This document shows, one piece after another, positions 2,921 to 23,855 of a DNA stretch of 40,000 bases (the first letter of the stretch is position 1; each line of letters starts with the position of its first letter). The stretch comes from Methanosarcina sp. 2.H.T.1A.6. GTDB lineage: Archaea; Halobacteriota; Methanosarcinia; Methanosarcinales; Methanosarcinaceae. The notes below the pieces were generated by a model. That model was not told the DNA's origin. It saw nothing but the letters and a program-made list of their open reading frames with translations, and searched no databases. The DNA is taken from NCBI RefSeq assembly GCF_000979455.1, contig NZ_JJOY01000052.1, forward strand, positions 1 through 40,000, read 5' to 3'. A program made the position numbers and the translations under genes.

Positions 2921-2992
2921 GAACTTTTAGATATACGGTTGTGCATAAATCTCACAAAACAGCGTTGCGTTTTTTTAAGTTACCTATATCCC
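2921..2992. repeat. Terminal inverted repeat of casposon W (polB-proximal end)
   Basis: ...AACTTTTAGATATACGGTTGTGCATAA...CAGCGTTGCGTTTTTTTAAGTTACCTATATCCC is the reverse complement of the X left TIR at 3007-3078 and resembles 13226-13300. Confidence 0.85.
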
Positions 2993-3006
2993 AAAAGAAG
3001 AGTGCG

Positions 3007-3078
3007 GGGATATAGGTAACTCAAAAAAACGCAACGCGTGTGTACTGATTATGCACAACCGTATATTTTCAAAAGTTA
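3007..3078. repeat. Left terminal inverted repeat of casposon X
   Basis: GGGATATAGGTAACTCAAAAAAACGCAACGC...TTATGCACAACCGTATATTTTCAAAAGTT is inverted with respect to 13226-13300 (X right end) and 2921-2992 (W). Confidence 0.85.
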
Positions 3079-4421: not shown

Positions 4422-7089
4422 TTAATATTCATTTACAAGTTTCTTTACTTCTTTCGTGTCCAAGTTCATCTTACTATCTCTCTTAACTCTATCTTTCATT
4501 CTCTTCAATGTACTTCTATGTTTGATTCCGAATTCCCTAGCCTCTTCAGGAGTTAAAGCCAAAATCTTCTGTTTAATCTCTTCCTCATTCACGAAAACTT
4601 GAGCCCCAACAATATCTAAAGGCTGATCTTCAATGCTGTTGGCTTCTTTCCCAATGTAAACTAAACCATCAGCTTGAATATTTCTCCTTTTTAAAACCCC
4701 TCTCTCTCCATCAAACTTGTTTTCAAGATGCTCAACATACTGCAAAATTGTTCTGCTTAATGGTTTGAAATATTGAGATCCTTCCTTAACTTCTCCTGTT
4801 TCATAATCAATAAATGGCTCATAAACTATCTTCTGATAATCTTTTGTAAATGGAGCCAGAGGCTTAACAGCCTTATCATTTTCTTCAATTGCCTGAAATC
4901 CTACAAGAAAGAAGTTAAAAGGTTTAATCTGTTCTTTCCAGTTTTTCCCTTCATTTAGCTTTTTAAACCTGTTCAAAACATTAGAAGTACTAACAGTAAG
5001 CCTGGAAATTGCATAAAGGTTAGAGTACTTATCTTGAATATCCTTTCCAGTAATCTGCCCATAGTGCAGTTTAAGAATATCCTGCCAGATTTCAGCCTGC
5101 CAATCTTCAACCGAGTTAGGGAAAGGGTTTGTTAAATGCCCAAGTCCATGAAGCTTATAAGATCTTTCATCTTCCATGAACCTGATTTTTCCATTCTCAT
5201 AGTAGTATAAAGCATACCTTTTAGAAGCAATACCATAAAACCAGAGATCCTTTTTCTCAGGTTTAAGTAATGGAATATCAATTAGGGTTAAGAGCCTGAA
5301 AGAACTTCGCAAGCTCCTGAGCCTTATCGGGAGGCACAAACACAGAGTCAGTATCCATGTAAGCGTGAATTGCTCCAAGCTCTTTCAACTTGGCTTCAGC
5401 CATTGTTAAGAAAAGCCTGGCTCCTGATGTAATCATAACAGCCAGAAGAGGATGAAAATACTTCCCTGACTTCTCAAACCTGTTTTCTTTTGTAACGAAA
5501 TTCTCAAGCCCATAAACCTGAAACTCACTTTTCCTATCTTCTGGGTTAAGCTCAATAAAGATTCCATAACTGAGAGCATTTACAAGGATCTTGATAGCCT
5601 GGGCTCTGCTTGATAGATGTTGAAATTCAGGATCATTTTTATCTGTCTTTTTTGACCTTTCCTTAATTTTCTGCCTCTCTTCTACAAGAACCTGAACAAT
5701 GTTATCCTTTGACGGATCAATGTCAACTCCAAGAATCCTGGATTTCCTTAACCCCTTCTGTACTTCTTTAGGAATAAATTTTACAGCTTCTTTGATCTTT
5801 GGAGCCTTGCCAGCAAGGAGATATGAGCCTATAACATCCGGTAAAGAGTACCACATCTCAGAGTTAGAACTCAGATAATTGATTCCTACGTTAAACCCTG
5901 TATTATTTCCTTTGTAATCCATCCTTACAGGTAAATTATCATTATCAGGCTGAATCTTGACCATAACAACAAGCTTTTTCCATGTATCCTGTTTCTGAAG
6001 GTCTGAAAGCTTCAGTTTTGAGATAAACTCCCTGGTTTCTTCTGTGATGTCTTGAATTTCCAGGCTCTCAGCTATGATGTATTTCCAGAGGTTCATTTCC
6101 ATTGTAACTGTGGGATACATGCTTGTAAAATCCAGAACATTAACCTTTGTTGGCTCCTTCCTTATTTTACATTCTGTTCTTCCCCCAAAATAGGAAGTCA
6201 TCATGTTTCCAATAGCTGAATCTGGAAACTCTGGATTCATTTCCAAGAATGGCTTAACCCCTAACTGGCTGAGAGCATGTTTTCCAATGGAAGCAGAGCT
6301 AAAGATCTTTGTTATGGGTATATGGATCTGATAAACGTCAAGCTCCTTAACAAGTGCCTTATATACAGCCTGGGTGGTTTCAACATCCTTTACCAGATAT
6401 TCAATATACTTTTCAGTAACCTTTCCATGCTTAACCTCTTTCATCTTCTGAACAGGCGTGTTAAGCTTCTCTCCTGCTCTCTCAAGGGAAATATGGTTTG
6501 ATTGAAGGAGAACTTCAGCCAGCCTTTGAGTATCCAGGAAATATCCTGAAAAATAGCTCTCTCCTTTGTTCTGCTTGGTAGTGGTAAACTTAAAGCTGTT
6601 AGAATAGCCAAGCTTCCTGATGATTACAGGAGGCTTAAAGGGATCCTTTGAGAGGGTAAGGGTAAAGCCTCCTCTGTTCCTTTCTCTTGAATCTCCTGAT
6701 CTTTTAGCTATCCTGCTTATATCAAAAGCCAGGTTATACCCATTGCAGAGGGTTTTAAGCTCAAAGACTTCAGGATAAAATACATTGTCTATAAACTCAT
6801 CCAAGCGGTACAGGTTTAAGTTATGGTTTCTTGAATAGGCTTCCAGTATCTTTATTTCTCTCTCATTAAGGGTAGTTGGATCATGGAATAAACCATCATG
6901 CTGAATAACTCCATCCTGGTAAATCTGGAAGTATCCGATCTTGAAATTTTGATACTGGTCGGTTGTGGTTTCAGTATCAAAAACCAGTACCCTGTTATGC
7001 CTGAGAGAAGTATCATAACGCCTAAAGCTCCTGTATCCTTCTTTTTTCTCAAGCCTCTGAGTATATCCTCTGACTGCAACTTTAGACAT
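4422..7089 (-). pseudogene. polB: Family-B DNA polymerase of casposon X, split by a frameshift near 5280-5290
   Basis: Two overlapping ORFs (5278-7089 and 4422-5378) together cover the full intact Y polB. Relative to Y (AACCCCTATAAAATTGAT), X reads AACCCTAATTGAT, a 5-nt deletion that gives LNPN-stop. All Exo and Pol motifs are otherwise present. Confidence 0.85.
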
Positions 7090-8312: not shown

Positions 8313-9203
8313 ATGAAAAAGAAAGAGTATGATTTTGACACTGAAGTAAAGCGATATCTTACGCAAAAAGGGTATGCAAGAAGGCGGCAACTCATAAAAG
8401 ACCTCATGGAAATACATAAAAATGAACTTGGATATAGCCTCAAAAGTATAAACCGTAAATTAGACAAACTAAAGAATCAAGGTATGATTATACGGCTGGA
8501 GTATTCCGATTTTGGGAAATTAGGAATAGAGGATACTGATAAAAACGCCAGTTATCTTACCTTGAAAGATATATCCAAAATAACAGAGCATATGGATAAG
8601 ATCTTAGAACGGCTTGATTCAGAAGAGCCCATGAAGCAAAAAATGGCTTTAAAAGAGATTGCCCGTTATGAACAAACTTATGTTTTAACTCCTGTACAAC
8701 TGGATCTAGTTGTAGCTCAGTTTGATAAAAACATTGATAAAGGAAACATAGATGATGAGCTTGCTGATAAGTTATTGCTCTTGTTAGACAGATATATTTT
8801 GAAAAAAGATATTGAGCCAACGAATAAAGCAAAAACAATTGACTTGTTAGTAAAATTGCTAGATAAATATCCTGTCCCTGTTTCAACCCATGTAAACCTT
8901 AGAACTCACATCATCTATCTTCTTGGGCATTATGGGCATAAGGCTGTAATTGAAAGGTTTATGGAAGATGCAAGAACCCTACAGGATCCTTTTTCTGTAG
9001 AAAATGTTTACAATACAGAATACACAGCCAATCTTATTGAGGAACACAGAGAAGAACTTTACAAGCTAGAAGAAGAGCTAGCAATAGAAGGAAAAGAGTA
9101 TGCTTCACAGTTTGTTTCCAATATAAGAACTGATGCTCTAATTAATTTGGGTTTATATAAAAACCCTTATACTACAGGAAAGAAGGAGGATGATTCTTGG
9201 TGA
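8313..9203 (+). CDS. Winged-helix (MarR-like N-terminus) protein with helical-repeat C-terminus (casposon core)
   Basis: The start is chosen at MKKKEYDFDTE rather than the upstream alternative start in the ORF track. The N-terminal YARRRQLIKDLMEIHKNELGYSLKSINRKLDKLKNQGMIIRL looks like a wHTH. The stop overlaps the cas1 start, and a homolog lies at 18601-19485. Confidence 0.7.
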   Translation: MKKKEYDFDTEVKRYLTQKGYARRRQLIKDLMEIHKNELGYSLKSINRKLDKLKNQGMIIRLEYSDFGKLGIEDTDKNASYLTLKDISKITEHMDKILERLDSEEPMKQKMALKEIARYEQTYVLTPVQLDLVVAQFDKNIDKGNIDDELADKLLLLLDRYILKKDIEPTNKAKTIDLLVKLLDKYPVPVSTHVNLRTHIIYLLGHYGHKAVIERFMEDARTLQDPFSVENVYNTEYTANLIEEHREELYKLEEELAIEGKEYASQFVSNIRTDALINLGLYKNPYTTGKKEDDSW

Positions 9204-10417
9204 AGCTTCTTCTTTTGAATGGTCACGGCATAAATATGCACGTTGATGGAGCCAAGCTTCATATTAAGGATGGAAGGTTTTCAACTACTGAAGAGCCTCA
9301 AGAATACATATTTGCTCCAAAAAGGATCGACATTTACAGCATTATCATTTATGGGAAAAGTGGAAACCTGACCTTAGAGGCTGTTAGATGGCTAATTAAG
9401 CACAATGTCCAGGTCACTATTCTCAACTGGAATGGAAAGCTCCTTACTACAATGCTTCCTCCTGAAAGTACCAATGTAAAAACAAAGTTTGCTCAGTATC
9501 ACGCTTTTGAGAATCAGGACGCAAGGCTTGAGATAGCAAAGAAAATTATTGAGGCTAAATTTGACAAGTCCAAGACTGTTCTTGATTTCCTGAGCCAAAG
9601 ATACCCTGAAATTAAATATGATATTTCGGATGAACTTACAAAGTTGAGAGATATAAAGAGCATCAGGGAGCTTATGGGTATAGAGGGAGGGTTAGCCTGG
9701 AAATACTGGAATGAGTTTTCAAAGGCGGTTCCAAAGGAATATGATTTTTGTTCCAGGATAGACCAGTACAGAAGACCTGTAGGGTCTGGGGATATGGTAA
9801 ACACTATGCTGAATTATGGCTATTCTCTTCTTGAATCTGAATGCCTGAGAGCCATTAATTCTGTGGGTCTGGATGTTCATGTAGGCTTTTTGCATGAAAT
9901 GGCCCCAAGTAAAAACAGTTTAGCCTATGACCTTCAGGAACCTTTCAGGTTCCTTGTGGATCTGGCAGTTATCAGCCTTGTTGAAAGTGGAGCTATGGAA
10001 ACTAAAGATTTCATAAGGACAGAGAATTACAATCTGAGGCTAAAGCCTAGTGGAGCCAGGAAGATTGTTAATGAGTTTTCCAATATGCTGAATAAAAAGG
10101 TAAGTTACCAGGGAAAGGAAAGCACCTGGAGTTATGTTATCTTTCTGAAAGTAAGGGAATTAGCCCATTATCTTACTAGCAAAAAGGAAAAACTGGATTT
10201 CGTTAAGCCTGAATATGAAATAGAGAGGATTGATTCTTATGTTATAAGGCAAAAGATTCTTAACATTTCTTATGTTGATTGGAAGAAATTAGGGTTTTCT
10301 AAAGGCACATTGCATTATATGAAGCAGAATGCAAAGTCAGATAAACCGTTTACTCTTAACAGCCATGTTCTGGACAGGGTGAATAAATGGGAAGCTCTTG
10401 TTTCAGGTCAAAAGTAA
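9197..10417 (+). CDS. cas1: Cas1-family casposase (solo Cas1; no cas2 or CRISPR array nearby)
   Basis: 406 aa with Cas1 catalytic-region motifs NYGYSLLESECLRAIN (E), HVGFLHEM (H) and AYDLQEPFRFLVD (E). AGGAGGA lies upstream of a TTG/GTG start. It is adjacent to polB and HNH within TIRs. Confidence 0.93.
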   Translation: MVKLLLLNGHGINMHVDGAKLHIKDGRFSTTEEPQEYIFAPKRIDIYSIIIYGKSGNLTLEAVRWLIKHNVQVTILNWNGKLLTTMLPPESTNVKTKFAQYHAFENQDARLEIAKKIIEAKFDKSKTVLDFLSQRYPEIKYDISDELTKLRDIKSIRELMGIEGGLAWKYWNEFSKAVPKEYDFCSRIDQYRRPVGSGDMVNTMLNYGYSLLESECLRAINSVGLDVHVGFLHEMAPSKNSLAYDLQEPFRFLVDLAVISLVESGAMETKDFIRTENYNLRLKPSGARKIVNEFSNMLNKKVSYQGKESTWSYVIFLKVRELAHYLTSKKEKLDFVKPEYEIERIDSYVIRQKILNISYVDWKKLGFSKGTLHYMKQNAKSDKPFTLNSHVLDRVNKWEALVSGQK

Positions 10418-10448: not shown

Positions 10449-10595
10449 ATTGTAAATTTTACAGTAAAATAGTAAAACGGTATCAAGAGAAATTGTAAAT
10501 TTTACAGTAAAATTGTAAAACGATATCAAGGGAAATTGTAAATTTCACCTGTAAAATTGTAAAACGGTATCAATAAGGATTGTAACAAGTAAATT
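10449..10595. repeat. 43-44-bp tandem repeat, about 3.4 copies, immediately downstream of cas1 (iteron-like)
   Basis: Units at 10449-10491, 10492-10534 and 10535-10578, with a partial unit at 10579-10595. The consensus is ATTGTAAATTTTACAGTAAAATWGTAAAACGGTATCAAGRGAA. Each unit contains the palindrome TGTAAA(T)TTTACA. Confidence 0.9.
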
Positions 10596-13300: not shown

Positions 13301-13314
13301 ATAACTTTAGTGCG
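13301..13314. repeat. Target-site duplication of casposon Y, left copy (ATAACTTTAGTGCG)
   Basis: Identical 14-mer at 23077-23090, directly flanking the two Y TIR tips. Confidence 0.85.
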
Positions 13315-13385
13315 GGGATATAGGTATCTCAAAAAAAGTGTACGCTACTGAAAAATTTCTACAGTACCCATTTTTCAAAAGTTGA
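13315..13385. repeat. Left terminal inverted repeat of casposon Y (outer)
   Basis: GGGATATAGGTATCTCAAAAAAAGTGTACGCTACTGAAAAATTTCTACAGTACCCATTTTTCAAAAGTTGAC matches the reverse complement of 23007-23076. Confidence 0.85.
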
Positions 13386-13425
13386 CACGCTTAAACATAA
13401 ATAGTTTTTATAAATCAAGTTTAAT

Positions 13426-13491
13426 AAAAAGAGTACGTTTTTTTGAGATAATGAGCAAACACTAATCTTTGAAAGTTGCCCTAACCAAAAT
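13426..13491. repeat. Second, inner TIR-like module at the left end of Y
   Basis: AAAAAGAGTACGTTTTTTTGAGATAATGAGCAAACACTAATCTTTGAAAGTTGCCCTAACCAAAAT matches the reverse complement of 22893-22975 (best over TTGAAARTTKGCCCTAACCAAAAT). Confidence 0.6.
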
Positions 13492-13622
13492 TAATTCATA
13501 TTTTTATAATTGTGTCTAAAAATAAGACCAGTTTTATACTTAAGTGTGAGATATATTGTTATAAAACCTTAATGATTTAAAAATAAAAAATAGTTTTATG
13601 GAAAGCTCTTTAACAAATCTCG

Positions 13623-14609
13623 TTATTCTTTTAAATATATTCTTTCTATTTCATATATCGATTTCCATTGGAAATTTATATCTGTTTTGTCTTTAAATAT
13701 TACAAAATTATCTCCGCCTTTACGACCATATCTACTTCTATATTTAATGCCTTGAAAACCAGCACAAAGAGCACAATCTGCGAGGAAACGAGTAAAAACA
13801 TATTCAGGTCTATCCCATTCTCTACTTTTTGGAGTATTATATATTAATGACGAACAAATAAGGGTTTTATATAATTCGTTGTCAAGTTTGCAACCCTCTA
13901 GGTCTGTTAAATCTAATATTTTTAAAGGCTTCAAGAAATTGATTTCTGCCATACAAACTGGGTATTTTTCATTTGATCTCACTTCACTACAACTGACATC
14001 TTCTGTTGTAGCCACATATAAGAATCCATACCCTGTATGATTGAATCTACCTTCTGTCGCTTTATTATCTGGAACAGCCCCTAATTCATCACAAGAATAA
14101 AGACTGCCAGTTTCAGCTAATTTTCTACATCTATATAAATTAAAGTCGAAGATTAATTCAGAGGTTTCTTTTGATATTTCTTTGATTAATTCATATATCT
14201 TTTCAGCAAATGGATGTGATAAAAGCATAAAAGGAGTTTTTTTAGCTATTTCAGCAATATCATTAATCTCCTCTGAAAATTCACCAAGATCTATTGTTAA
14301 AATATAAGGCCAAATATAAGAATTAGATTTTAAGCTACTTCCACAATATGGGCAGGTTATTTCTTCTACAAACCCCTTGAATTCTGAAAAAGAATAGACA
14401 TCTACTAAATGTGATCCTGAATAAAAAGAATCTAAACTAGTACTTAAAAACTGCTCGTCCAATAAGTTAATTCCGGCCCATTTAATCTGAAAATCATCGA
14501 CACAAGATTCACATAAAAAGAAGTCTGTATCGAACCACTTTTCAAAATAATGCCAGAATAACTCTATAAAACAATCCAATCTGATTAGATCAACCATTTC
14601 TTGCACCAA
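13623..14609 (-). CDS. RES-domain protein (NAD-targeting toxin family) with N-terminal Cys-rich (zinc-ribbon-like) extension; casposon Y cargo
   Basis: The C-terminal half follows the RES-domain pattern: LYRCRKL (R), TEGRFNHTGYGFLYVATTEDVSCSEVR (E), LKILDLTD, GFQGIKYRSRYGRKGGDNFVIF (S). The N-terminal part has CESC...CPYC. No Xre-like partner ORF is adjacent. Confidence 0.7.
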   Translation of the reverse strand: MVQEMVDLIRLDCFIELFWHYFEKWFDTDFFLCESCVDDFQIKWAGINLLDEQFLSTSLDSFYSGSHLVDVYSFSEFKGFVEEITCPYCGSSLKSNSYIWPYILTIDLGEFSEEINDIAEIAKKTPFMLLSHPFAEKIYELIKEISKETSELIFDFNLYRCRKLAETGSLYSCDELGAVPDNKATEGRFNHTGYGFLYVATTEDVSCSEVRSNEKYPVCMAEINFLKPLKILDLTDLEGCKLDNELYKTLICSSLIYNTPKSREWDRPEYVFTRFLADCALCAGFQGIKYRSRYGRKGGDNFVIFKDKTDINFQWKSIYEIERIYLKE

Positions 14610-14711
14610 TTGAAAGATATATCCATCTTACTAATATTTTAAAATTTGTTCTCAATCTCTTGATGAATAAAAACCCTAATTGTTTCAAAGTTCGGAATAG
14701 TTCATTATCCT

Positions 14712-17384
14712 TCAAAAGAGAGAAATTAATTTCTTTACTTCTTTAGTTTTCATATTGATTTTCCCATCTTTTATTATCTTATCCTTTATCTTTTTTAAAG
14801 TGCTCCGGTATTTTATTCCAAATTCCCTAGCTTCTTTTGGGCTTATGTTTAAAATTTTTTGTTTAATCTCTTCCTCATTAATGAAAACTTGAGATTTGGT
14901 AACATCCAAAGGCTGATCCTCAATATTATTGGCTTCTTTCCCAATGTAAACTAACCCATCAGCTTGAATATGTCTTCTCTCTAAAACCCCAATATTCCCA
15001 TCAAACTTATTTTCAAGATGTTCAACATATTGTAAAATCGTCCTGCTCAATGATTTGAAATATTGAGATCCTTCCTTAACTTCTCCTTTTTCATAATCAA
15101 TGAATGGCTCATAAACTATCTTCTGATAGTCTTTAGTAAATGGAGCCAGAGGCTTGACAGCCTTATAATCTTCTTCAACTGCCTGGAATCCTACAAGGAA
15201 GAAGTTAAAAGGCTTAATCTGGTCTTTCCAGTTTTTCCCCTCATTCAGTTTCTTAAACCTGTTCAATACATTGGAAGTACTAACAGTAAGCCTAGAAATT
15301 GCATAAAGGTTAGAATATTTTTCTTCAATATCCCTTTCAGTAATCAGCCCATAATGAAGTTTCAGAATATCCTGCCAGATTTCAGCCTGCCAATCCTCAA
15401 CTGAATTAGGAAATGGGTTTGTTAAATGCCCAAGCCCATGAAGCTTGTAAGACCTTTCATCTTCCATGAATCTGATTTTTTCATTCTCATAGTAGTACAG
15501 AGCATACCTTTTAGAAGCAATTCCATAAAACCATAGATCCTTTTTCTCAGGCTTAAGCAATGGAATATCAATTTTATAGGGGTTAAGAGGCTGAAAGAAC
15601 TCTACAAGCTTCTGAGCCTTTTCAGGAGGCACAAACACAGAATCAGTATCCATGTAAGCGTGAATAGCTCCAAGTTCTTTTAACCTGGCTTCAGCCATTG
15701 TTAAGAAAAGCCTGGCTCCTGAAGTAATCATAACAGCCAGGAGAGGATGAAAATACTTGCCTGACTTCTCAAACCTGTTTTCCTTTGTAACAAAATTCTC
15801 AAGCCCATAAACCTGAAAATCACTTTTCTTATCTTCTGGGTTAAGCTCAATAAAGATTCCATAACTGAGGGCATTTACAAGAATTTTGATAGCCTGGGCT
15901 CTGCTTGATAGATGCTGATATTCAGGATCATTTTTATCGATCTTTTTCAATTCCTGCTTAATCCTCTGCCTCTCTTCTACAAGAACCTGAACAATATTAT
16001 CCTTTGATGGGTCAATATCAATTCCAAGAACCCTGTTTTTCCTTAACCCCTTCTGTACGCCTTCAGGAACAAATTTTATAGCCTCTATGATCTTTGGAAC
16101 CTTACCAGTAAGAAGGTATGAGCCTATAACATCCGGTAAAGAATACCACATCTCAGAGGCAGAACTCAGATAATTGATTCCTACGTTAAACCCTGTATTA
16201 TTCCCTTTATAATCCATTCTTACAGGCAAAATATCATTATCAGGCTGAATCTTGACCATAACAACAAGCTTTTTCCATGTATCCTGTTTCTGAAGGTCTG
16301 AAAGCTTCAGTTTTGAAATAAATATCTTTGTTTCTTCTGTAATGTCCTGAATTTCCAGGCTTTCAGCTATGATGTATTTCCAGAGGTTCATTAACATTGT
16401 AACTGTAGGGTACATGCTTGTAAAATCAAGAACTGTAACCTTTGTTGGCTCTTTCCTGATTTTACATTCTGTTCTTCCCCCATAATAAGAAGTCATCATG
16501 TTCCCGATAACTGAATCTGGAAAATCTGGATTCAGTTCTAGGAAAGGTTTAACCCCTAACTGCTCAAGAGCATATTTCCCAATGGAAGCCTCACTAAAGA
16601 TTTTTGTTATGGGTATATGGATCTGGTAAACGTCAAGCTCCTTAACAAGCTTTTCATACACAGCCTGAGTAGTTTCAACATCTTTTATCAGATAATCAAT
16701 ATACTTTTCAGTAACTTTTCCATGTTCAATTCCTTTCATTTTCTTAACAGGAGTATTGAGCCTTTCTGCGGCTTTTTCAAGGGAAATACGCCTTTCCTGA
16801 AGGAGAACTTCAGCCAACCTTTGAGTATCTAGGAAATAGCCTGAGAAATGACTCTCTCCCTTGTTCTGCTTGGTTGTGGTAAACTTAAAGTTGTTAGAGT
16901 ATCCAAGTTTTCGGATAATTATAGGAGGGTTGAAAGGATCATCTGAAAGAGTAAGAGTAAAGCCTCCTCTATTCCTTCCCCTTGAATCTCCTGATTTTTT
17001 GGCTATTCTGCTAAGGTCAAAAGCCAGGTTATACCCATTGCAGAGGGTCTTAAGTTCAAAGACTTCAGGATAAAACACATTGTCTATGAACTCATTCAGG
17101 GAATACAGGCTTATGTTATGCTTTTTGGAATAGGCTTCCAGTATCTTTATTTCTCTTTCATTCAGGATAGTTGGATCATAGAATAAACCATCATGCTGAA
17201 TAACTCCATCTTGGTAGATCTGGAAGTATCCTATCTTAAAATTCTGATACTGGTCTATAGTGGTTTCAGTATCAAAAACCAGTACTCTTGAATGCCTCAG
17301 AGGAGTATCATAAAGCCTAAAGCTCCTATACTCTCCTTTTTTCTCAAGTCTTTGAGTATATCCCCTGACTGCAACTTTAGACAT
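14712..17384 (-). CDS. polB: Family-B DNA polymerase (casposon Y), intact
   Basis: ExoI VLVFDTETT, ExoII NLAFDLSR, ExoIII YLIKDVETT, PolA LDFTSMYP, PolB KILVNALSYG, PolC YMDTDSVF. The start is set at MSKVAVRGY (as in copy X) rather than the upstream Met at 17411. Confidence 0.93.
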   Translation of the reverse strand: MSKVAVRGYTQRLEKKGEYRSFRLYDTPLRHSRVLVFDTETTIDQYQNFKIGYFQIYQDGVIQHDGLFYDPTILNEREIKILEAYSKKHNISLYSLNEFIDNVFYPEVFELKTLCNGYNLAFDLSRIAKKSGDSRGRNRGGFTLTLSDDPFNPPIIIRKLGYSNNFKFTTTKQNKGESHFSGYFLDTQRLAEVLLQERRISLEKAAERLNTPVKKMKGIEHGKVTEKYIDYLIKDVETTQAVYEKLVKELDVYQIHIPITKIFSEASIGKYALEQLGVKPFLELNPDFPDSVIGNMMTSYYGGRTECKIRKEPTKVTVLDFTSMYPTVTMLMNLWKYIIAESLEIQDITEETKIFISKLKLSDLQKQDTWKKLVVMVKIQPDNDILPVRMDYKGNNTGFNVGINYLSSASEMWYSLPDVIGSYLLTGKVPKIIEAIKFVPEGVQKGLRKNRVLGIDIDPSKDNIVQVLVEERQRIKQELKKIDKNDPEYQHLSSRAQAIKILVNALSYGIFIELNPEDKKSDFQVYGLENFVTKENRFEKSGKYFHPLLAVMITSGARLFLTMAEARLKELGAIHAYMDTDSVFVPPEKAQKLVEFFQPLNPYKIDIPLLKPEKKDLWFYGIASKRYALYYYENEKIRFMEDERSYKLHGLGHLTNPFPNSVEDWQAEIWQDILKLHYGLITERDIEEKYSNLYAISRLTVSTSNVLNRFKKLNEGKNWKDQIKPFNFFLVGFQAVEEDYKAVKPLAPFTKDYQKIVYEPFIDYEKGEVKEGSQYFKSLSRTILQYVEHLENKFDGNIGVLERRHIQADGLVYIGKEANNIEDQPLDVTKSQVFINEEEIKQKILNISPKEAREFGIKYRSTLKKIKDKIIKDGKINMKTKEVKKLISLF

Positions 17385-17709
17385 TTTGCACCATCTCATT
17401 TCCAAGATCAATTAGCTGAGTTCCTAATTCTTTCAGTAAAGCACCAATAGAAACTAACTGAAAGGCTCTCTTTTGTTCAGGAGAAGCGTTTTTAGACCTA
17501 ACTTTTGGGCTGAACTTATTCTGTTCCTTTGTTATCTTGGAATGGCAGTTTTTGCAGAGAGACTGAACCTTGTCTGAATTGCTCCTTCCATAGACATGAT
17601 GCATTTCAATAACTTCTGGATCATCTTCCCCACAGACAACACAGCAAAGAGAAGGGCTCCCATTTCTCTTCTGTTTGTTCAAACTTTTTTGATAAGTTTC
17701 CTTGTCCAT
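17377..17709 (-). CDS. HNH endonuclease (casposon core)
   Basis: CCVVCGEDDPEVIEMHHVYGRSNSDKVQSLCKNCHSKIT. It overlaps the polB start by 8 nt. Confidence 0.85.
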   Translation of the reverse strand: MDKETYQKSLNKQKRNGSPSLCCVVCGEDDPEVIEMHHVYGRSNSDKVQSLCKNCHSKITKEQNKFSPKVRSKNASPEQKRAFQLVSIGALLKELGTQLIDLGNEMVQNV

Positions 17710-17721
17710 AGTTTCACCCCC

Positions 17722-18360
17722 TTAGTGCTGATAAATTTCCAAAAACTCTGGCTCTTCCTGGGCTTCCAGGATCTCATAGAGCTTATCAAGGTCGGTTTCA
17801 AAGTGGTGGACTTTGCCTTCAGCATCCACTAGTTGAACATCTTTGAACTTGGCAAGAACTGAGGGATCATTGTTTTTTATTGCCTTCTGAACGCTGGCAA
17901 AATATTCTCCAATTAAAGACCTATCCTTAGAACTGGCTGTAACAATCGTTTTTTGTCCTTCTGTGGAATAGATCAGCATATTAACCTGGATAGAATCGGC
18001 TTTTGTAACCCTCCAGTTCCCTCCTGACTTGTACAGGTTCTTCCCAAGGTGTTTAACTGCAAATTCTGTCCTTTTGCCTATTTTTTCAAGCACAGAAGAA
18101 AGATTTTCACCTTTTCTCATTTCTCTTAAAATTTGGAAAGATAGATTTCTATCTCTCTTATCCTGGGCTGAAAGAGTTTTCCAGGCTGTCTGGCTTAGAT
18201 CAAAATCGCCTATCTTCGGATTTCTAAGCTGGCTGAGGCTTTTATCAGGGAAAAATTTGTGTTTCCTGATGATTTCTTTTGCATATTTTGTATTCCTAGG
18301 CTGAGCCTTGAGCCATTCTCCATAAGTTCTGTAGTCTTTGGAAAATCTTGGGCGGCTCAT
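17722..18360 (-). CDS. Conserved casposon core protein of unknown function (ORF212)
   Basis: 212-aa ORF translationally coupled to the upstream RHH gene (ATGA overlap). A homolog lies at 7427-8065. No motif is recognised. Confidence 0.75.
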   Translation of the reverse strand: MSRPRFSKDYRTYGEWLKAQPRNTKYAKEIIRKHKFFPDKSLSQLRNPKIGDFDLSQTAWKTLSAQDKRDRNLSFQILREMRKGENLSSVLEKIGKRTEFAVKHLGKNLYKSGGNWRVTKADSIQVNMLIYSTEGQKTIVTASSKDRSLIGEYFASVQKAIKNNDPSVLAKFKDVQLVDAEGKVHHFETDLDKLYEILEAQEEPEFLEIYQH

Positions 18361-18497
18361 CTGTCAGCCTCCATTATTCTGATAAAAGCTGTTCTCATAA
18401 CTTCAGCCTGAGAGCATCCGTATTCTTCTGCTTTCTGTTCCAGTTTCTCCTTAAGGTAAGGAGATAATGTTATCAAAACTCTGTCTTTTGTGGTCAT
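18357..18497 (-). CDS. Ribbon-helix-helix (CopG/Arc-like) protein, 46 aa
   Basis: My own translation gives MTTKDRVLITLSPYLKEKLEQKAEEYGCSQAEVMRTAFIRIMEADR, homologous to 8062-8211. Confidence 0.7.
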   Translation of the reverse strand: MTTKDRVLITLSPYLKEKLEQKAEEYGCSQAEVMRTAFIRIMEADR

Positions 18498-18600
18498 GTA
18501 GCTCACAAAGAACAGTATGCTCAGATCTTACTTATGTACAGAATTGAGTATAACTTTAAGTATAAGTTTGATGTATATTTTATATATACTTGGGATTAAT

Positions 18601-19485
18601 ATGAAGAAGAAAGAGTATGACTTTGACACAGAAATAAAGAATTATCTTGTCCAAAAAGGGTATGCAAGAAGGCGGCAACTCATAGAAGACCTAATGAAAG
18701 CACACAAAAATGAAAGAGGATATAGCCTCAAGAGTATAAACCGCAAACTGGACAATTTGATTAATCAAGGAATAATTATAAGTCTCAAATACTCCGATTT
18801 TGAAAAATTAGGAATAGAAGATGCTGATAAAAGAGCCAGTTACCTAACCTTAAAAAATATATCCAAAATAAAGGAGCATATGGATAAGATTTTAGAAAGG
18901 CTCGCTTCAAAAGAACCCACGAAGCAAAAAATGGCTTTAAAAGAGATTGCCCTTTATGAGCAAGTATATGTTTTAACTCCTGAACAGTTGGATTTAGTGG
19001 TAAAGCAATTTGATAAGGGTATTGATAAGGAAACTATAGATGATGACCTTGCTAATACGCTATTACTTTTATTATACACATATATTTTGAAAAAAGGTAT
19101 CGAACCAGCTAATAAAATAAAAACAATCGACCTGTTAGTAAAACTGCTAGATAAGTATCCTGCTCCTGTTCCAAGGCAAGTAAATCTAAGAACGCACATC
19201 ATTTATCTTCTTGGGCATTATGGGCATAAAGCTGTAATTGAAAGGTTTATAAAAGATGCAAGAACCTTACAAGATTTTTCACCCATAGAAAACGTTTACA
19301 GTACCGAATACACAGCTAATCTTATTGAAGAACATAGAGAAGAACTTTACAAACTGCAAGAAGATTTAGCAATAGAAGGAAAAGAGAATGCTTCTCAGTT
19401 TGTTTCCAATATCAGAAGTGATGTTCTAATTTCTTTGGGCTTGCGTAAAAACCCTTTTGCTAAAAAGGAGGATGATTCTTGGTGA
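18601..19485 (+). CDS. Winged-helix protein with helical-repeat C-terminus (casposon core)
   Basis: Homolog of 8313-9203. The start is set at MKKKEYDFDTE, and the stop overlaps the cas1 start. Confidence 0.7.
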   Translation: MKKKEYDFDTEIKNYLVQKGYARRRQLIEDLMKAHKNERGYSLKSINRKLDNLINQGIIISLKYSDFEKLGIEDADKRASYLTLKNISKIKEHMDKILERLASKEPTKQKMALKEIALYEQVYVLTPEQLDLVVKQFDKGIDKETIDDDLANTLLLLLYTYILKKGIEPANKIKTIDLLVKLLDKYPAPVPRQVNLRTHIIYLLGHYGHKAVIERFIKDARTLQDFSPIENVYSTEYTANLIEEHREELYKLQEDLAIEGKENASQFVSNIRSDVLISLGLRKNPFAKKEDDSW

Positions 19486-20699
19486 AACTTCTTCTTCTGA
19501 ATGGTCACGGCATAAATATGCATGTTGATGGAGCCAGGCTCCATATTAAAGATGGAAGATTTTCAACTACTGAAGAGCCTCAAGAATACATATTTTCTCC
19601 GAAAAGGATTGATATTGACGGCATTATCATATATGGAAAGAGTGGGAACCTTACCTTAGAGGCTGTTAGATGGCTTATTAAACATAATGTTCAGGTTTCT
19701 ATTTTAGATTGGAATGGCAAGCTCTTAACCACAATGCTTCCTCCTGAAAGTACCAATGTAAAAACAAAGTTTTCTCAGTATCATGCTTTTGAGGATAAGG
19801 AAGTAAGGCTTGAGATAGCAAAGAAGTTCATTGAAGCCAAATTTTACAAATCTAAGGCTGTTCTTGATTTCCTGAGCCAAAGGTATCCTGAAATTAAGTT
19901 TGATATTTCGGATGGACTCACAAAACTAAAAGATGTAAAAAGCACTAGGGAAATTTTGGGAGTAGAGGGAACCTTAGCCGGTAAATACTGGACTGAGTTT
20001 TCAAAGGCTGTTCCAAAGGAATACGATTTCTGTAACAGAATAGACCAGTACAGCCGATCTATGAATTCTGGAGATATGGTAAACACCATGCTCAATTATG
20101 GTTATTCTTTGCTTGAGGCTGAATGTTTGAGAGCCATAAATACTGTAGGGTTAGATCCTCATGTAGGGTTTTTACATGAAATGACACCAAGCAAGAACAG
20201 TTTAGCCTATGATCTTCAGGAGCCTTTCAGATTTCTTGTAGATCTGGCAGTAATCAGCCTGGTTGAAAGTGGGGCTATGGAAAGTAAGGATTTCATAAGG
20301 ACAGAAAATTACAATCTCAGGTTAAAGCCTAGTGGAGCCAAAAAGGTTGTTAATGAGTTTACCAATATGCTGAATAAAAAGGTAAGCTACCAGGGAAAAG
20401 AAAGCACATGGAGTTATGTTATCTTTCTGAAGGTTAGAGAATTAGCCCATTATCTTACTAGCAAAAAAGAAAAACTGGATTTTGTTAAGCCTGAATATGA
20501 AATTGAGAGAATTGATTCTTATGATATAAGGCAAAAGATTCTCAATATTTCTTATGTTGATTGGAAGAAATTAGGGTTTTCTAAAGGTACATTGCATTAT
20601 ATGAAACAGAACGCCAAGAGCGATAAGCCATTTACTCTTAATGCTCACGTTCTGGAAAGGGTAAATAAGTGGGAAGCATTGGTTTCAAGTCAAAGGTAA
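19479..20699 (+). CDS. cas1: Cas1-family casposase (solo Cas1)
   Basis: 406 aa with NYGYSLLEAECLRAIN, HVGFLHEM and AYDLQEPFRFLVD. AGGAGGA precedes a TTG/GTG start. Confidence 0.93.
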   Translation: MVKLLLLNGHGINMHVDGARLHIKDGRFSTTEEPQEYIFSPKRIDIDGIIIYGKSGNLTLEAVRWLIKHNVQVSILDWNGKLLTTMLPPESTNVKTKFSQYHAFEDKEVRLEIAKKFIEAKFYKSKAVLDFLSQRYPEIKFDISDGLTKLKDVKSTREILGVEGTLAGKYWTEFSKAVPKEYDFCNRIDQYSRSMNSGDMVNTMLNYGYSLLEAECLRAINTVGLDPHVGFLHEMTPSKNSLAYDLQEPFRFLVDLAVISLVESGAMESKDFIRTENYNLRLKPSGAKKVVNEFTNMLNKKVSYQGKESTWSYVIFLKVRELAHYLTSKKEKLDFVKPEYEIERIDSYDIRQKILNISYVDWKKLGFSKGTLHYMKQNAKSDKPFTLNAHVLERVNKWEALVSSQR

Positions 20700-20730
20700 A
20701 ATGTGTATGTTTTTACTGTAAAATGTAAAA

Positions 20731-20875
20731 ATGTAAAATTTACAGTAAAATAGTAAAAATGCATCAAGAGAAGTTGTAAAATTTACAGTAAAATAGTAAA
20801 ACAGTATCAAGAGAAAGTGTAAAATTTACAGTAAAATTGTAAAACGATAAAAAGAGCAATTGTAAAAAAGTAACG
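20731..20875. repeat. 43-bp tandem repeat, about 3.4 copies, filling the cas1-RT intergenic space (iteron-like)
   Basis: Units at 20731-20773, 20774-20816 and 20817-20859, with a partial unit from 20860. The unit is the same family as 10449-10595 (TGTAAAATTTACAGTAAAATAGTAAAAC...ATCAAGAGAA). Confidence 0.9.
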
Positions 20876-20876
20876 A

Positions 20877-22385
20877 TTAACTATGTGAAGCAGAAGGTCT
20901 TTTAGATGCATCAATTAAAACTGATTCAATTTTAAATTTCCCACATTCATTTATTTTTTTAATTGTTTCTTCTAAATATTTAAGCATCTGGGTCTTGTTT
21001 TGATTTGTTGGTCTTTTAAAGTACTCTTCTTTTTCATCTTTAAACCACATGACCAAAAATAAACCTGATTTGGAAGGACTTGCTTTCAAATATAATGGTA
21101 ATTGTTTAGTTAGACCATGTTCCAACTCTTCATTATGTGCCAATTTAAACTCTGCACAAACATTTACAGGAATGTTACCTTTTATTGTAACCAGGAATTT
21201 GAAGTCAAGTTTTCCGATTCCTTCATCTGTTTCTCTTAAAACATGTATCCCAAAAGGTAGTAAATTTCGACAAAAGAAAATATGAATTGTAGGTTGAATT
21301 TTTGATTCTTTTTTGGGAACAGCTGGTATCTTATACTTTTTTCCATCCATCTCTACCTCACGAGCCTCATCCCAAAATGGTTCAGTCCATCTTCGATCCT
21401 CTATATAGTGTTTCAATTCTGTAATGGTAGTAGCTATGGCTTTTAAAAAATCACTTTCTGACTCAATAATATTATTCGCATCAACTGGATGGAAATAATG
21501 TTTTTTCTCAAGAGATCTTACAATAAGTTCGCTGTCTCTTGAATTTTTTAGATTTTCATCATAACTTAGCCAATTAAAACCTTTAAGTTTCTCTATTAAC
21601 GGATTTGCAAAGTCAGGGTCTACCATTTTAGCAAATGCCAGTTCACCACAAATCTTTTCTTTGAAAAATGGATCCTTCTCTCTATTCTCTGTTTCAGCTC
21701 CATTTTTCTGAATATTATGCACTATTGCTCTTAGAATTTTCTTCTTGCGCCTACCAATACTTACCTTGTCATTAACAACCAAGCCGGTTACTTTTTGCTG
21801 TGAACCTCTTGAAAGTACCCTAGTTTTTTCTTCATTGATAACAAAGCCATTTCTTTCAATAATTTCTATTATTTTTTGCTTGTGCATTGGAAGTTTATAG
21901 GAACCTGAAATCGTGATGTCGTCCGCATATCTTGAATATCGAAAATTTCTTCTTGTACAATAATTGTCGATTTCATAGTCAAGGTCTACAGTAGATAGGT
22001 TAGCGAGCATTGGACTAGTTGGTGCCCCTTGAGGTAATTTCCAATGATATGTGCATAAATCAGAAAGCGACCACGCAATTTTTTTGGTATATCCAGCGGA
22101 CTTAAAGATATAGTAGACAGATCTAAAACTTATACTTGGGAAATAATCCTTTATATCAATCCCTAAAACTAGATCTTGACCAACGTGAATCGAAGCATTT
22201 GTCAAAATTGATCTGTCTGGAATAAAACCATGAGCTAAATTTCCAGCATTCAATTTATACAAAATATTATTTAGAATCCATCTTTGAATATTCTTCATTT
22301 TTTTTGATGGAGCGTTGATTTCTCTTAAACCACCATTTTTTTTAGGTATTTTAAATGTAGAATAAGCCTTCTCTTTATTTGACAA
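20877..22385 (-). CDS. Retron-type reverse transcriptase fused to a C-terminal RecB/Cas4-like PD-(D/E)xK nuclease-like domain (the frame stays open upstream to 22595)
   Basis: RT motifs ILTNASIHVG (NAxxH), LPQGAPTSPMLANL, YSRYADDITIS and SQQKVTGLVVNDK (VTG) closely parallel my recollection of retron RTs such as Ec86. The C-terminal ~230 aa has GKLDFKF (D), CAEFKLA (ExK) and KQLPLYL (QxxxY). The listed start is a TTG. Confidence 0.85.
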   Translation of the reverse strand: MSNKEKAYSTFKIPKKNGGLREINAPSKKMKNIQRWILNNILYKLNAGNLAHGFIPDRSILTNASIHVGQDLVLGIDIKDYFPSISFRSVYYIFKSAGYTKKIAWSLSDLCTYHWKLPQGAPTSPMLANLSTVDLDYEIDNYCTRRNFRYSRYADDITISGSYKLPMHKQKIIEIIERNGFVINEEKTRVLSRGSQQKVTGLVVNDKVSIGRRKKKILRAIVHNIQKNGAETENREKDPFFKEKICGELAFAKMVDPDFANPLIEKLKGFNWLSYDENLKNSRDSELIVRSLEKKHYFHPVDANNIIESESDFLKAIATTITELKHYIEDRRWTEPFWDEAREVEMDGKKYKIPAVPKKESKIQPTIHIFFCRNLLPFGIHVLRETDEGIGKLDFKFLVTIKGNIPVNVCAEFKLAHNEELEHGLTKQLPLYLKASPSKSGLFLVMWFKDEKEEYFKRPTNQNKTQMLKYLEETIKKINECGKFKIESVLIDASKRPSASHS

Positions 22386-22595
22386 AAAAAGTCTAATTTG
22401 TTTTGATGAGGAATTTGATAAGTTACAAAAATGATCAATATCATATATATAAGGTAATTTTTTGGACTTTAAATTTTTGAAAGATTTAAAATTTTCGTCA
22501 TATTCTTCTTTGCTTAGTTCTGGAATAATACCTTCTTCAAAATAATTATCAAATAAAATTTTTAACTTTTCATTTTTTGTTAATTTGTTTATTAC

Positions 22596-22892
22596 TTATC
22601 CCACCGAATATGACTTAAAATTCAGTTAATAGTATGGATAGTTGCCCTCACAAAATCGCTTGCGATTTTATGGTGCATGAAGTTCGTGAAGTTCATGCAC
22701 TTTTCGGTCAAGTTTACCTTTGCCTTAGTATGACATTTGCATGGCGTAACACCACACATATCTCCCTGACGAGAGATAATTCAGATCTGAGAGCAACTAA
22801 TTGTAGTAAGACAACTTATTATAAATATTGTACTAAATTGATCTTAAAGAATTTCATTTTTTCAAATGACCATTATAAAAATAGAAATTAAT
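22596..22892 (-). ncRNA. Candidate retron non-coding RNA (msr/msd) region upstream of the RT
   Basis: About 300 bp with no convincing ORF lies between the RT frame and the inner TIR. It contains stable hairpins at 22652-22669 (7-bp stem), 22673-22700 (9-bp stem) and 22759-22778 (6-bp stem), plus a 10-nt palindrome at 22781-22790. No a1/a2 repeats or branching G could be identified by eye. Confidence 0.3.
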
Positions 22893-22975
22893 TTTGGTTA
22901 GGGCAAATTTTCAAAATTAACGGTTGTGCATAATCGCTACAAAACAGTGTACACTTTTTTAACCTTTTATATAGT
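22893..22975. repeat. Inner TIR-like module at the right end of Y (X/W-type TIR lacking the terminal TACCTATATCCC tip)
   Basis: ...GGTTAGGGCAAATTTTCAAAATTAACGGTTGTGCATAATCGCTACAAAACAGTGTACACTTTTTTAACC resembles 13226-13288 and is inverted relative to 13426-13491. Confidence 0.6.
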
Positions 22976-23006
22976 TAGCATTATAAAATGTGATTTTAGA
23001 CTAGGG

Positions 23007-23076
23007 CAACTTTAAGAAAAACAGTGCTGTTAGAATTTTCCTGTAGCGTACACTTTTTTGAAGATACCTATATCCC
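23007..23076. repeat. Right terminal inverted repeat of casposon Y (outer)
   Basis: CAACTTTAAGAAAAACAGTGCTGTTAGAATTTTCCTGTAGCGTACACTTTTTTGAAGATACCTATATCCC is the reverse complement of 13315-13385. Confidence 0.85.
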
Positions 23077-23090
23077 ATAACTTTAGTGCG
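23077..23090. repeat. Target-site duplication of casposon Y, right copy (ATAACTTTAGTGCG), overlapping the 3' end of the tRNA-Leu-like sequence
   Basis: Identical to 13301-13314. Its last 4 nt (TGCG) are the complement of the tRNA 3' terminus ...CGCA. Confidence 0.85.
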
Positions 23091-23170
23091 AGGGATGGGA
23101 TTCGAACCCACAAAATCCTTCGAGATCGATTTTAAGTCTGTCGCCTTTGACCGGGCAGGGCACCCTTTGC
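23087..23170 (-). pseudogene. Decayed tRNA-Leu(UAA)-like copy (casposon attachment site)
   Basis: The 84-nt sequence aligns with the intact tRNA at 23771-23855, with the same D-arm, CTTAA anticodon loop core, variable arm and T-arm. However, the acceptor stem has 2 mismatches (GCAAAGG vs CCCTCGC) and the anticodon stem keeps only 3 of 5 pairs. Confidence 0.65.
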
Positions 23171-23266
23171 ATCTTTGTCTACCGACTTATAAATAAATAT
23201 AATAAGTTTGATTTTTAATCTTTGCAAGAACTTGATCTTATTCTGTTTCTAGAGTAGCACATACAT

Positions 23267-23473
23267 TTACATAAGTTTTTTAGTGCTCTGTACTATGGTA
23301 ATTGCCCCGTGTGCGCATATATCTAAACATGAGCCGCAGTCATTGCATTTATCTTCAATCACAAATGAAATATCATCGTCATTGAAGGAAACTGCGTTTG
23401 CAGGGCATTCGCCTATGCAGCTTCCGCAACCAGCGCAGGAGTTGGCATTGATTTTTGCTACCATGGTTTTCAC
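23267..23473 (-). CDS. 2x[4Fe-4S] ferredoxin
   Basis: 68 aa with two cluster motifs, CAGCGSCIGECP and CNDCGSCLDIC. Confidence 0.85.
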   Translation of the reverse strand: MKTMVAKINANSCAGCGSCIGECPANAVSFNDDDISFVIEDKCNDCGSCLDICAHGAITIVQSTKKLM

Positions 23474-23770
23474 TCCTCATTTCATCAAGAAGTTGATTTC
23501 ACTCACCGAATTTTATATATGAATATGGTTGATGGTTCTGGTAGTCTAACGTTAAGTTAAGTCTTCGACAAATACAGCCAGGGGGCATCAAGTATTTACT
23601 TGCTAGGAAGCCCACTTCCTTTTTCTGATTTGATATATAAAAATCTATGCCATATTTATAAATATTTTTCTCTTTTAATCTGGTTGCAAGACTTAAAATT
23701 GCCACAATAAAGTAAAAACAGTTAATGTCAGGAAAATCTGAACTAAAATAAGAAATTATAACAAACTCAG

Positions 23771-23855
23771 TGCGAGGGGTGGGATTCGAACCCACGAAAT
23801 CCTTCGATACCGGATCTTAAGTCCGGCGCCTTTGACCTAGCTGGGCAACCCTCGC
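23771..23855 (-). tRNA. tRNA-Leu (anticodon UAA), type II with long variable arm
   Basis: The reverse complement is GCGAGGGTTGCCCAGCTAGGTCAAAGGCGCCGGACTTAAGATCCGGTATCGAAGGATTTCGTGGGTTCGAATCCCACCCCTCGCA. It has a perfect 7-bp acceptor stem, anticodon stem CCGGA/TCCGG with loop CTTAAGA, and a GTTCGAATC T-loop. Confidence 0.9.

Follow-up and report, generated by a model that had tools for sequence, protein, structure and literature searches.

Retrons are divided into 13 types (Mestre et al. 2020, PMC7736814), several of which fuse the reverse transcriptase (RT) to a second domain: RT-Toprim (type I-C), RT-DUF3800 (type VII-A1), RT-protease (type XI), and RT-TIR (type XII). The 2020 classification (PMC7736814) covers bacterial phyla only, and a May 2026 metagenome survey lists 13 bacterial phyla as sources of retrons. 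In Methanosarcina acetivorans, a putative retron RT has been known since 2003. The subject here is a 40,000-nucleotide stretch of Methanosarcina sp. 2.H.T.1A.6 (contig NZ_JJOY01000052.1, positions 1 to 40,000), referred to as the window. It holds what is probably a self-contained retron, composed of one non-coding RNA (ncRNA) gene and one polypeptide and carried as cargo by a family-2 casposon. Judged from sequence, what is new is the class of the predicted effector fused to the RT, together with the definition of the ncRNA; the retron is native to methanogenic archaea and borne by a casposon.

In overall layout, the closest described systems are types I-C (Retron-Eco2/Ec67), XI, XII, and VII-A1. 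Each consists of an ncRNA followed by one open reading frame (ORF) encoding the RT and a C-terminal enzymatic domain, with no accessory gene, and the Methanosarcina retron is built the same way. In type I-C, the fused domain is a nuclease, as is predicted here. The present retron differs from all four in its fusion to DUF8371, a predicted PD-(D/E)xK nuclease, and in its archaeal host. The PADLOC models for the fused types XII, XI, and I-C score 215-260 bits on this RT, versus 350 bits for type III-A.

In RT sequence, the closest relatives lie elsewhere. Type III-A RTs (PDLC02946) align end to end with the present RT (profile positions 10-329 of 330, 350 bits), and Ec86/Eco1 (type II-A) is the closest solved structure, sharing the NAxxH, YADD, and VTG motifs. 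In types III-A and II-A, the effector (PRTase or NDT) is encoded by a gene of its own. No such gene is present at this locus; the ncRNA has no Rfam match and there is no conserved neighbor gene. Table 1 of Mestre et al. 2020 (PMC7736814) lists no PD-(D/E)xK or DUF8371 effector among the 13 types, and by effector the retron belongs to none of them, as the first-pass annotation of the window had supposed. In the literature searched, no description was found of the RT-nuclease fusion as a retron type, of its ncRNA, or of any archaeal retron system, in agreement with the earlier remark that archaeal retrons are rarely documented. No relevant paper on DUF8371 (PF28130) was found.

The RT gene lies on the minus strand, as do all retron features described below. 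Its frame is open for 572 codons plus a stop (20877..22595). The first canonical start is a TTG at 22385, which yields the 502-aa ORF (20877-22385) first reported, and the position of that ORF is confirmed. The motifs that mark a retron RT are all present: NAxxH (NASIH; region X) at 22185-22199, YADD at 21918-21929, and VTG (region Y) at 21783-21791. The RT domain itself spans 21570..22520 and is delimited by matches to PADLOC RT_III-A, NCBIfam retron_St85_RT, and an Ec86 RT profile.

Profile searches put the RT identity well beyond chance. Pfam RVT_1 matches the RT at 8e-21, and the NCBIfam model retron_St85_RT gives 255.5 bits, above its cutoff of 235; NCBI's name for the protein is retron St85-family RT. 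For the 502-aa ORF, the top PADLOC retron model is RT_III-A (326 bits, 5e-98), with XIII and then II-A ranked next. In all, 29 PADLOC retron RT models match the RT at E <= 1e-40. Retron models reach 200-350 bits, whereas the group II intron RT model reaches 62 and the Drt2/Drt3a models 34-40. The best solved relative in a PDB sequence-profile search is the Ec86 RT (3e-72; Ec86 residues 11-272), followed by Ec67, Kva2, and Ec78/Ec83, which bears out the likeness to Ec86 that had been noticed by motif. On these profile scores, placement in the retron clade is secure, even without a tree.

At least 44 homologues carry both RVT_1 and PF28130. Most are 554-575 aa long, with lengths up to ~750 aa, and most come from Methanosarcinales. 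The database protein with 100% identity is labelled "unclassified Methanosarcina". No relatives were found encoded by viral contigs in an IMG/VR scan. Among PLSDB plasmids, 197 records match the RT half at <=42% identity and none matches the fusion; the top match is a type I-A-like locus and is therefore uninformative on type.

The RNA component is encoded directly upstream. The segment 22593-22900 folds at -77.4 kcal/mol (z = -5.2), and none of 100 shuffles folds as well. Within it, folding, nhmmer searches, and covariation delimit a 161-nt candidate msr-msd ncRNA at 22639..22799. From 5' to 3', it is composed of an a1 arm, TAGTTGCTCTCA (22788-22799); a G invariant in 17 sequences (22787); two conserved hairpins, SL1 (22759-22778) and SL2 (22738-22758); a linker conserved in the alignment that includes a small hairpin (22709-22738); a long variable hairpin, SL4 (22673-22700); a short hairpin, SL5 (22652-22669); and an a2 arm, TGAGGGCAACTA (22639-22650), which pairs with a1 and closes the fold. 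An a1/a2 repeat enclosing hairpins, with a G after a1, is the anatomy of a retron ncRNA.

The upstream regions of nine homologous RT genes align well, and each alone folds into the same layout by minimum free energy. SL4 differs among loci in both sequence and length. Conserved 5' hairpins combined with a variable 3' hairpin give an msr-like and msd-like pattern. An A/T box, TATTTATAATA (22817..22827), is conserved in the homologue alignment ~20 nt upstream of a1 and is plausibly the archaeal TATA box for an ncRNA-RT transcript. The promoter role is assigned from general archaeal promoter features.

The first-pass annotation had placed an msr/msd in ~300 bp of ORF-free, hairpin-rich sequence upstream of the 502-aa ORF. 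Upstream of the RT there is indeed a structured RNA whose anatomy is that of a retron, and the region around it has been redrawn on both sides. The ~210 bases 5' of the 502-aa ORF are coding, because the open frame there holds the conserved RT N-terminus. The outer ~210 bp (22869-23076) are casposon end and not retron, because the subterminal repeats of the element reach 22869.

Covariation across loci is strong. In an alignment of 17 sequences with 38 pairs in five helices, 97.5% of cells pair, compared with 36-55% in slid controls. Double (compensatory) changes occur at 13 pairs, and none of 500 shuffles reached the observed values. Locus L057, which is outside this alignment, has further double changes in a1/a2, where GTTATCCTTAG pairs with TAAGGATAAC. 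Of the checks proposed on homologous loci, the covariation, the a1/a2 repeats, and a conserved G at the predicted branch position were all present.

It is exceedingly unlikely that the upstream hairpins are chance or casposon-terminal structure with no retron RNA. The region is AT-rich and adjoins the long subterminal inverted repeats, and an Rfam scan of 22300-23300 (E <= 10) returned just tRNA and noise, with no retron msr family. Neither the compensatory changes nor the fall in pairing of the slid controls fits such an origin, and nor does the distribution of the element. An nhmmer profile, sufficient here given the high sequence conservation, finds the ncRNA upstream of the RT in 20 loci, including RTs with other C-terminal domains and loci that lack casposon sequence. 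It occurs once in the window, is absent from the neighboring casposon X, and is never found beside bacterial DUF8371 genes. The ncRNA accompanies the RT, not the nuclease domain and not the casposon.

The C-terminal domain, DUF8371 (PF28130; 20880..21467), takes its label from precomputed Pfam annotation. A local Pfam search gave no match for it or for ten other DUF8371 architectures, and the PDB sequence-profile search matched the RT part alone. PADLOC, proposed earlier as a check, recognized the RT by its retron models and left the C-terminal domain unmatched. A full-library HMMER search for DUF8371 gave 506 cluster representatives at 50% identity, and conservation was computed on 152 of these. 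Conserved in 100% are D394 (21204-21206), E412 (21150-21152), and Q428 (21102-21104); conserved in 99% are E360 (21306-21308), E385, K414 (21144-21146), and Y432 (21090-21092). These residues include those of the motifs GKLDFKF (21195-21215), AEFKLAH (21135-21155), and QLPLY (21090-21104). Conservation at this level indicates that the D, ExK, QxxxY series read from the single sequence is real and strongly constrained.

Residues 251-502 were modeled with AlphaFold2 (AF2) and 40 homologues; the model has a mean predicted local distance difference test (pLDDT) score of 80.6, with the core above 90. Its secondary structure (domain numbering) is helix 110-128, strands 131-137, 142-151, and 155-165, helix 171-185, and strand 190-197, which is the a-b-b-b-a-b core of the PD-(D/E)xK superfamily and is restriction-endonuclease-like. 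D394 is on predicted strand 2 and E412-x-K414 on strand 3, as expected of catalytic residues. Foldseek matches are weak (best E 4e-3 in the PDB and 2e-4 in BFVD; TM ~0.3), and nearly all are PD-(D/E)xK proteins. The PDB matches include SfsA, NucS/EndoMS, BbvCI, PaqCI, Mus81, PspGI, Card1, and HamA. The BFVD matches are viral DUF2726, Mrr, PD-(D/E)XK, and UL24 proteins. The model and the conservation support assignment of the C-terminal ~200 aa to the PD-(D/E)xK superfamily as a predicted nuclease.

The first-pass annotation had called this domain RecB/Cas4-like. The fold and the motif series stand, and the kinship is limited to the motif pattern: the ordered E, D, ExK, QxxxY series is common to DUF8371 and to Cas4, RecB, and AddB. 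No Cas4, RecB, or AddB structure is within the top 50 Foldseek PDB matches. A Cas4-type iron-sulfur cluster of four conserved cysteines was not found, the domain having one near-invariant Cys. With no Cas4 or RecB match, the superfamily assignment alone is supported.

DUF8371 behaves like an exchangeable effector. It is fused in at least 44 homologues, and many Methanosarcinales RTs that are 55-70% identical in the RT half have other C-terminal domains. Sister archaeal RTs with such other domains share the ncRNA. Two sister RTs, P0083 and P0088, have weak CN_hydrolase matches in the C-terminus. Across 16 loci, the RT gene is the sole conserved gene and the neighbors are not conserved. The proposal of an RT-effector fusion is upheld by this swapping. 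DUF8371 also occurs apart from RTs in hundreds of proteins, some of them bacterial and ~435 aa long and others of different architecture. Every member tested aligns with the NCBIfam model for the NACHT antiphage protein EruA (NF058535; E 3e-5 to 2.5e-16), over the last ~150-230 residues of that model. They score 22-59 bits against a model cutoff of 1000, and only the terminal domain is shared. Papers on EruA/HyoA were not found in the literature search.

A different role for the domain is conceivable. DUF8371 could process or bind the multicopy single-stranded DNA (msDNA), comparable to the host exonuclease trimming known in some retrons, with any effector encoded elsewhere or nonexistent. The cis fusion would hold DUF8371 beside the msDNA as it is made, QxxxY motifs of the RecB type are characteristic of nucleases that process ends, and the toxicity of the domain is a prediction. 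This role is judged improbable, because unrelated domains replace DUF8371 in sister RTs with the same ncRNA, and because the domain recurs without an RT and at the C-terminus of the EruA model. The 16 loci also hold no conserved partner gene able to act as effector in its place, and in protein P0044 of Methanococcoides alaskense the catalytic residues are lost and a further C-terminal domain is added.

P0044 (L004 5164-7632), an RT fusion of 805 aa, has substitutions at each of the catalytic D, E, K, and Q of DUF8371 and carries an extra C-terminal domain of ~300 aa; it looks like an effector replacement in progress. Outside Methanosarcinales, Methanococcus maripaludis encodes a retron RT of 286 aa that ends within the thumb, and DUF8371 as a protein of its own, 240 aa long (P0120/P0126); the pair is either a split or a frameshifted version of the fusion. 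In a gammaproteobacterial metagenome-assembled genome (L005 4178-6588), a 435-aa DUF8371 protein with an unassigned N-terminal half is encoded directly behind an inovirus-type replication initiator (Phage_CRI, 8e-51), its gene beginning at the initiator's stop codon. This context hints at carriage by integrated filamentous phages; a phage collection contained no relatives of the bacterial 434-aa DUF8371 protein. Two homologous retrons lie in surroundings that resemble defense islands, one beside a 1368-aa NACHT protein (L054 11434-15540) and one near an nSTAND/TPR ATPase (L057 1-1229).

The retron is carried by casposon Y (13315..23076), a self-replicating Cas1 transposon of family 2. The element has terminal inverted repeats (TIRs; GGGATATAGGTATCTC... 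and its complement) at 13315-13346 and 23045-23076, within extended subterminal inverted repeats at 13315-13513 and 22869-23076. It is flanked by a 14-bp target site duplication (TSD), ATAACTTTAGTGCG, at 13301-13314 and 23077-23090; the right copy overlaps the 3' end of the tRNA-Leu(TAA) gene that was the insertion target (23086-23170, minus strand). Its genes are RES (13623-14609), an intact PolB (14712-17411), and HNH (17377-17709) on the minus strand, and a helix-turn-helix (HTH) protein (18517-19485) and Cas1 (19479-20699; Cas_Cas1, 2e-67) on the plus strand, with the retron next. Cas1, PolB, HNH, HTH, TIRs, and a 14-bp TSD at a tRNA 3' end are the features of a family-2 casposon, and the description of the retron as cargo of an intact casposon is borne out.

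Casposon X, to the left, encodes Cas1 (9197-10417), a split PolB, and a transglutaminase. The retron occupies the slot between cas1 and the tRNA-proximal TIR, the slot in which casposon X has the transglutaminase gene, an unrelated gene as first reported. The same report called this slot cas1-distal, which is not quite apt: the retron is directly downstream of cas1.

The pair corresponds to published elements. Krupovic et al. 2016 (PMC4779613) described tandem casposons at tRNA-Leu in Methanosarcina sp. 2.H.T.1A.3, one with a fragmented PolB, and the window matches the tandem casposons of that strain and its sister strains. The cargo listed for Met2HT1A3-C1 is a "retron-like reverse transcriptase (cd03487)" and a RES protein, and the other casposon of the pair has transglutaminase cargo (PMC4779613). 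By tandem arrangement, fragmented PolB, cargo, and tRNA-Leu, casposon Y appears to be the same element as Met2HT1A3-C1. The 2016 annotation gave the RT alone. Added here are the fused nuclease domain, the ncRNA, the defect at the start codon, and the finding that the association recurs beside casposon remnants in other genomes.

The association with casposons recurs in at least five homologous loci of other Methanosarcinales genomes. Cas1 fragments lie tail-to-tail with the RT in L057/L058 and beside the retron in L056, and PolB fragments lie beside the retron in L004 and L054. TIR or subterminal sequence is found upstream of the ncRNA in L004, L015, L054, L056, and L057. In locus coordinates, the remnants that flank the retron are at L057 9438-12572, L056 9730-13782, L004 2788-10015, L054 8729-9272, and L015 1363-1441, in a relative position like that in the window. 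No casposon sequence was found within 6 kb in L001, L002, L016, L017, and L019. With remnants at some loci and none at others, the retron is an independent module that casposons have carried repeatedly, or have left behind on decaying.

This pattern bears on whether the RT and its RNA serve the casposon itself, e.g., in replication priming or transposition, and are not defense or addiction cargo. Such a service is very unlikely, given that many homologous retron loci have no casposon sequence within 6 kb and that sister casposon X and most published casposons have other cargo in the slot and no retron (PMC4779613). The RT, the ncRNA, and the domain modularity are also those of retrons. What speaks for it is that the retron is repeatedly at the same casposon end, beside cas1 and a TIR, and that the a1/a2 core AGTTGCCCT exactly matches a motif of the casposon's subterminal repeats.

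The 9-mer AGTTGCCCT has three exact copies in the window, at 23003-23011 (minus), 13474-13482 (plus), and 22640-22648 (plus). Two fall within the subterminal repeats of the casposon, and the third is complementary to the retron a2 arm; in many homologues the a1 arm reads GTTGCCCT(C/T)AG. The likeness may be chance, because copies of AGTTGCCCT with one mismatch are not enriched (8 observed, 8.1 expected). It is more speculative that, through the 9-nt core shared by the a1/a2 stem and the casposon subterminal repeat, the RNA or msDNA of the retron might engage the casposon machinery.

Other features of the window concern the casposons. A third TIR / 14-bp spacer (AAAAGAAGAGTGCG) / TIR junction is present at 2962-3037, and ~900 nt of the PolB gene recur in inverted orientation at 524-1432, with 89% complementarity to 4441-5351. 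The two features suggest that a third casposon, incomplete, lies left of casposon X in addition to the pair in the 2016 paper. Three tandem ~43-bp repeats (GTAAAATAGTAAAAC.GTATCAAGAGAAATTGTAAA) lie directly 3' of cas1 in both casposons (20745-20868 and 10464-10588); those of casposon Y abut the RT stop codon. Two tRNA-Leu(TAA) genes (23770-23855 and 23086-23170) are separated by 684 bp and are 91% identical over a 3' segment of 44 nt, and the TSD is found at the casposon-proximal one only.

The N-terminus of the fusion requires separate consideration. The frame is open for 70 codons beyond the TTG at 22385, up to 22595, and the added residues (..LFDNYFEEGIIP..LPYIYDIDHFCNLS..) are the RT N-terminus kept in the homologues. 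With them, RT_III-A scores 350 instead of 326 bits and is covered over profile positions 10-329 (of 330) instead of 57-329. The start codon in nine aligned loci is TTG (ATG in L020), right behind a conserved Shine-Dalgarno-like box, GGTGGGAT (22598..22605), to which a ribosome-binding role is attributed. A frameshift from an out-of-frame ATG near 22573 was considered and rejected; the homologue alignment puts the start at 22593-22595.

Several points weigh against a working retron in the window. At the ancestral start position it has GTA (22593-22595), and use of the next in-frame ATG, GTG, or TTG costs 70 conserved residues, which makes expression of this copy uncertain. The nearest bacterial plasmid RT shares just 39% identity, and effector logic is not transferable from the close type III-A relatives because their known effectors are PRTases. 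The msDNA, the nuclease activity, and the antiviral phenotype are all predicted from sequence or model.

The start codon raises the prospect that the locus is a retron by descent whose window copy is decaying and silent, with the full RT no longer translatable. The closest relative, L054, has TTA at the start position and a TTG 13 codons downstream, where the window has TTA. The NCBI 520-aa model opens with MDHF, and the window codon at that position is ATT (22439-22437). Broken copies are known among relatives: L003 (Methanoperedens) has an open frame of 92 aa, and the M. maripaludis P0120/P0126 pair is split. Decay is nonetheless the less likely state, if a serious one, since all 572 codons are open, each catalytic residue is intact, and the ncRNA is intact. 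The N-terminal 70 residues closely resemble those of L054/P0002, as judged by eye. The Shine-Dalgarno-like box is also intact and is followed by an ATA second codon (22590-22592) common to the window and L054, a possible weak near-cognate start. As read from the sequence, the window copy is otherwise intact and its translation start is non-canonical or lost; the GTA may reflect near-cognate initiation or recent inactivation.

Taken as a whole, the evidence supports the first-pass annotation in its four elements, the RT, the nuclease fold, the RNA, and the casposon cargo, all of which survived testing. Its suggestion of an undescribed system holds for the fusion type and the ncRNA, no description of which was found in the literature searched, and less so for the parts: the RT was listed as casposon cargo in 2016, and DUF8371 is in Pfam. 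The novelty is tempered also by a function that is predicted and by the start-codon defect of the window copy.

A mechanism can be proposed by analogy with characterized retrons. The RT would bind the msr hairpins and prime from the 2'-OH of G22787. By copying the SL5/SL4 region it would make a short msDNA, about 50-90 nt in length and bearing two DNA hairpins. The RT-msDNA complex would keep the cis-fused nuclease inactive until a virus perturbs the msDNA, and the released nuclease would then cut nucleic acid and abort the infection. For the casposon, the retron would be defense or addiction cargo that rewards retention of the element.

Chances are about even that this is an archaea-native retron type working in methanogens, with an RT fused to a DUF8371 PD-(D/E)xK nuclease, its own msr-msd RNA, and an archaeal-style promoter, spread by casposons as antiviral or element-stabilizing cargo. 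If so, Archaea would gain their first retron system with a defined RNA component, and retrons a fourteenth effector class. Bacteria are the basis of nearly all retron biology, classification, and tool-building, and a covarying ncRNA with a single-ORF RT-nuclease in Methanosarcinales provides a concrete, testable archaeal retron. Its compact two-part organization might serve msDNA production or editing in methanogens. For the "dark" Pfam family DUF8371, with ~500 clusters at 50% identity, the retron points to a likely function as a nuclease effector. Casposons, relatives of the CRISPR adaptation module, repeatedly bear defense-type cargo at one end, and such cargo bears on how these elements persist in their hosts.

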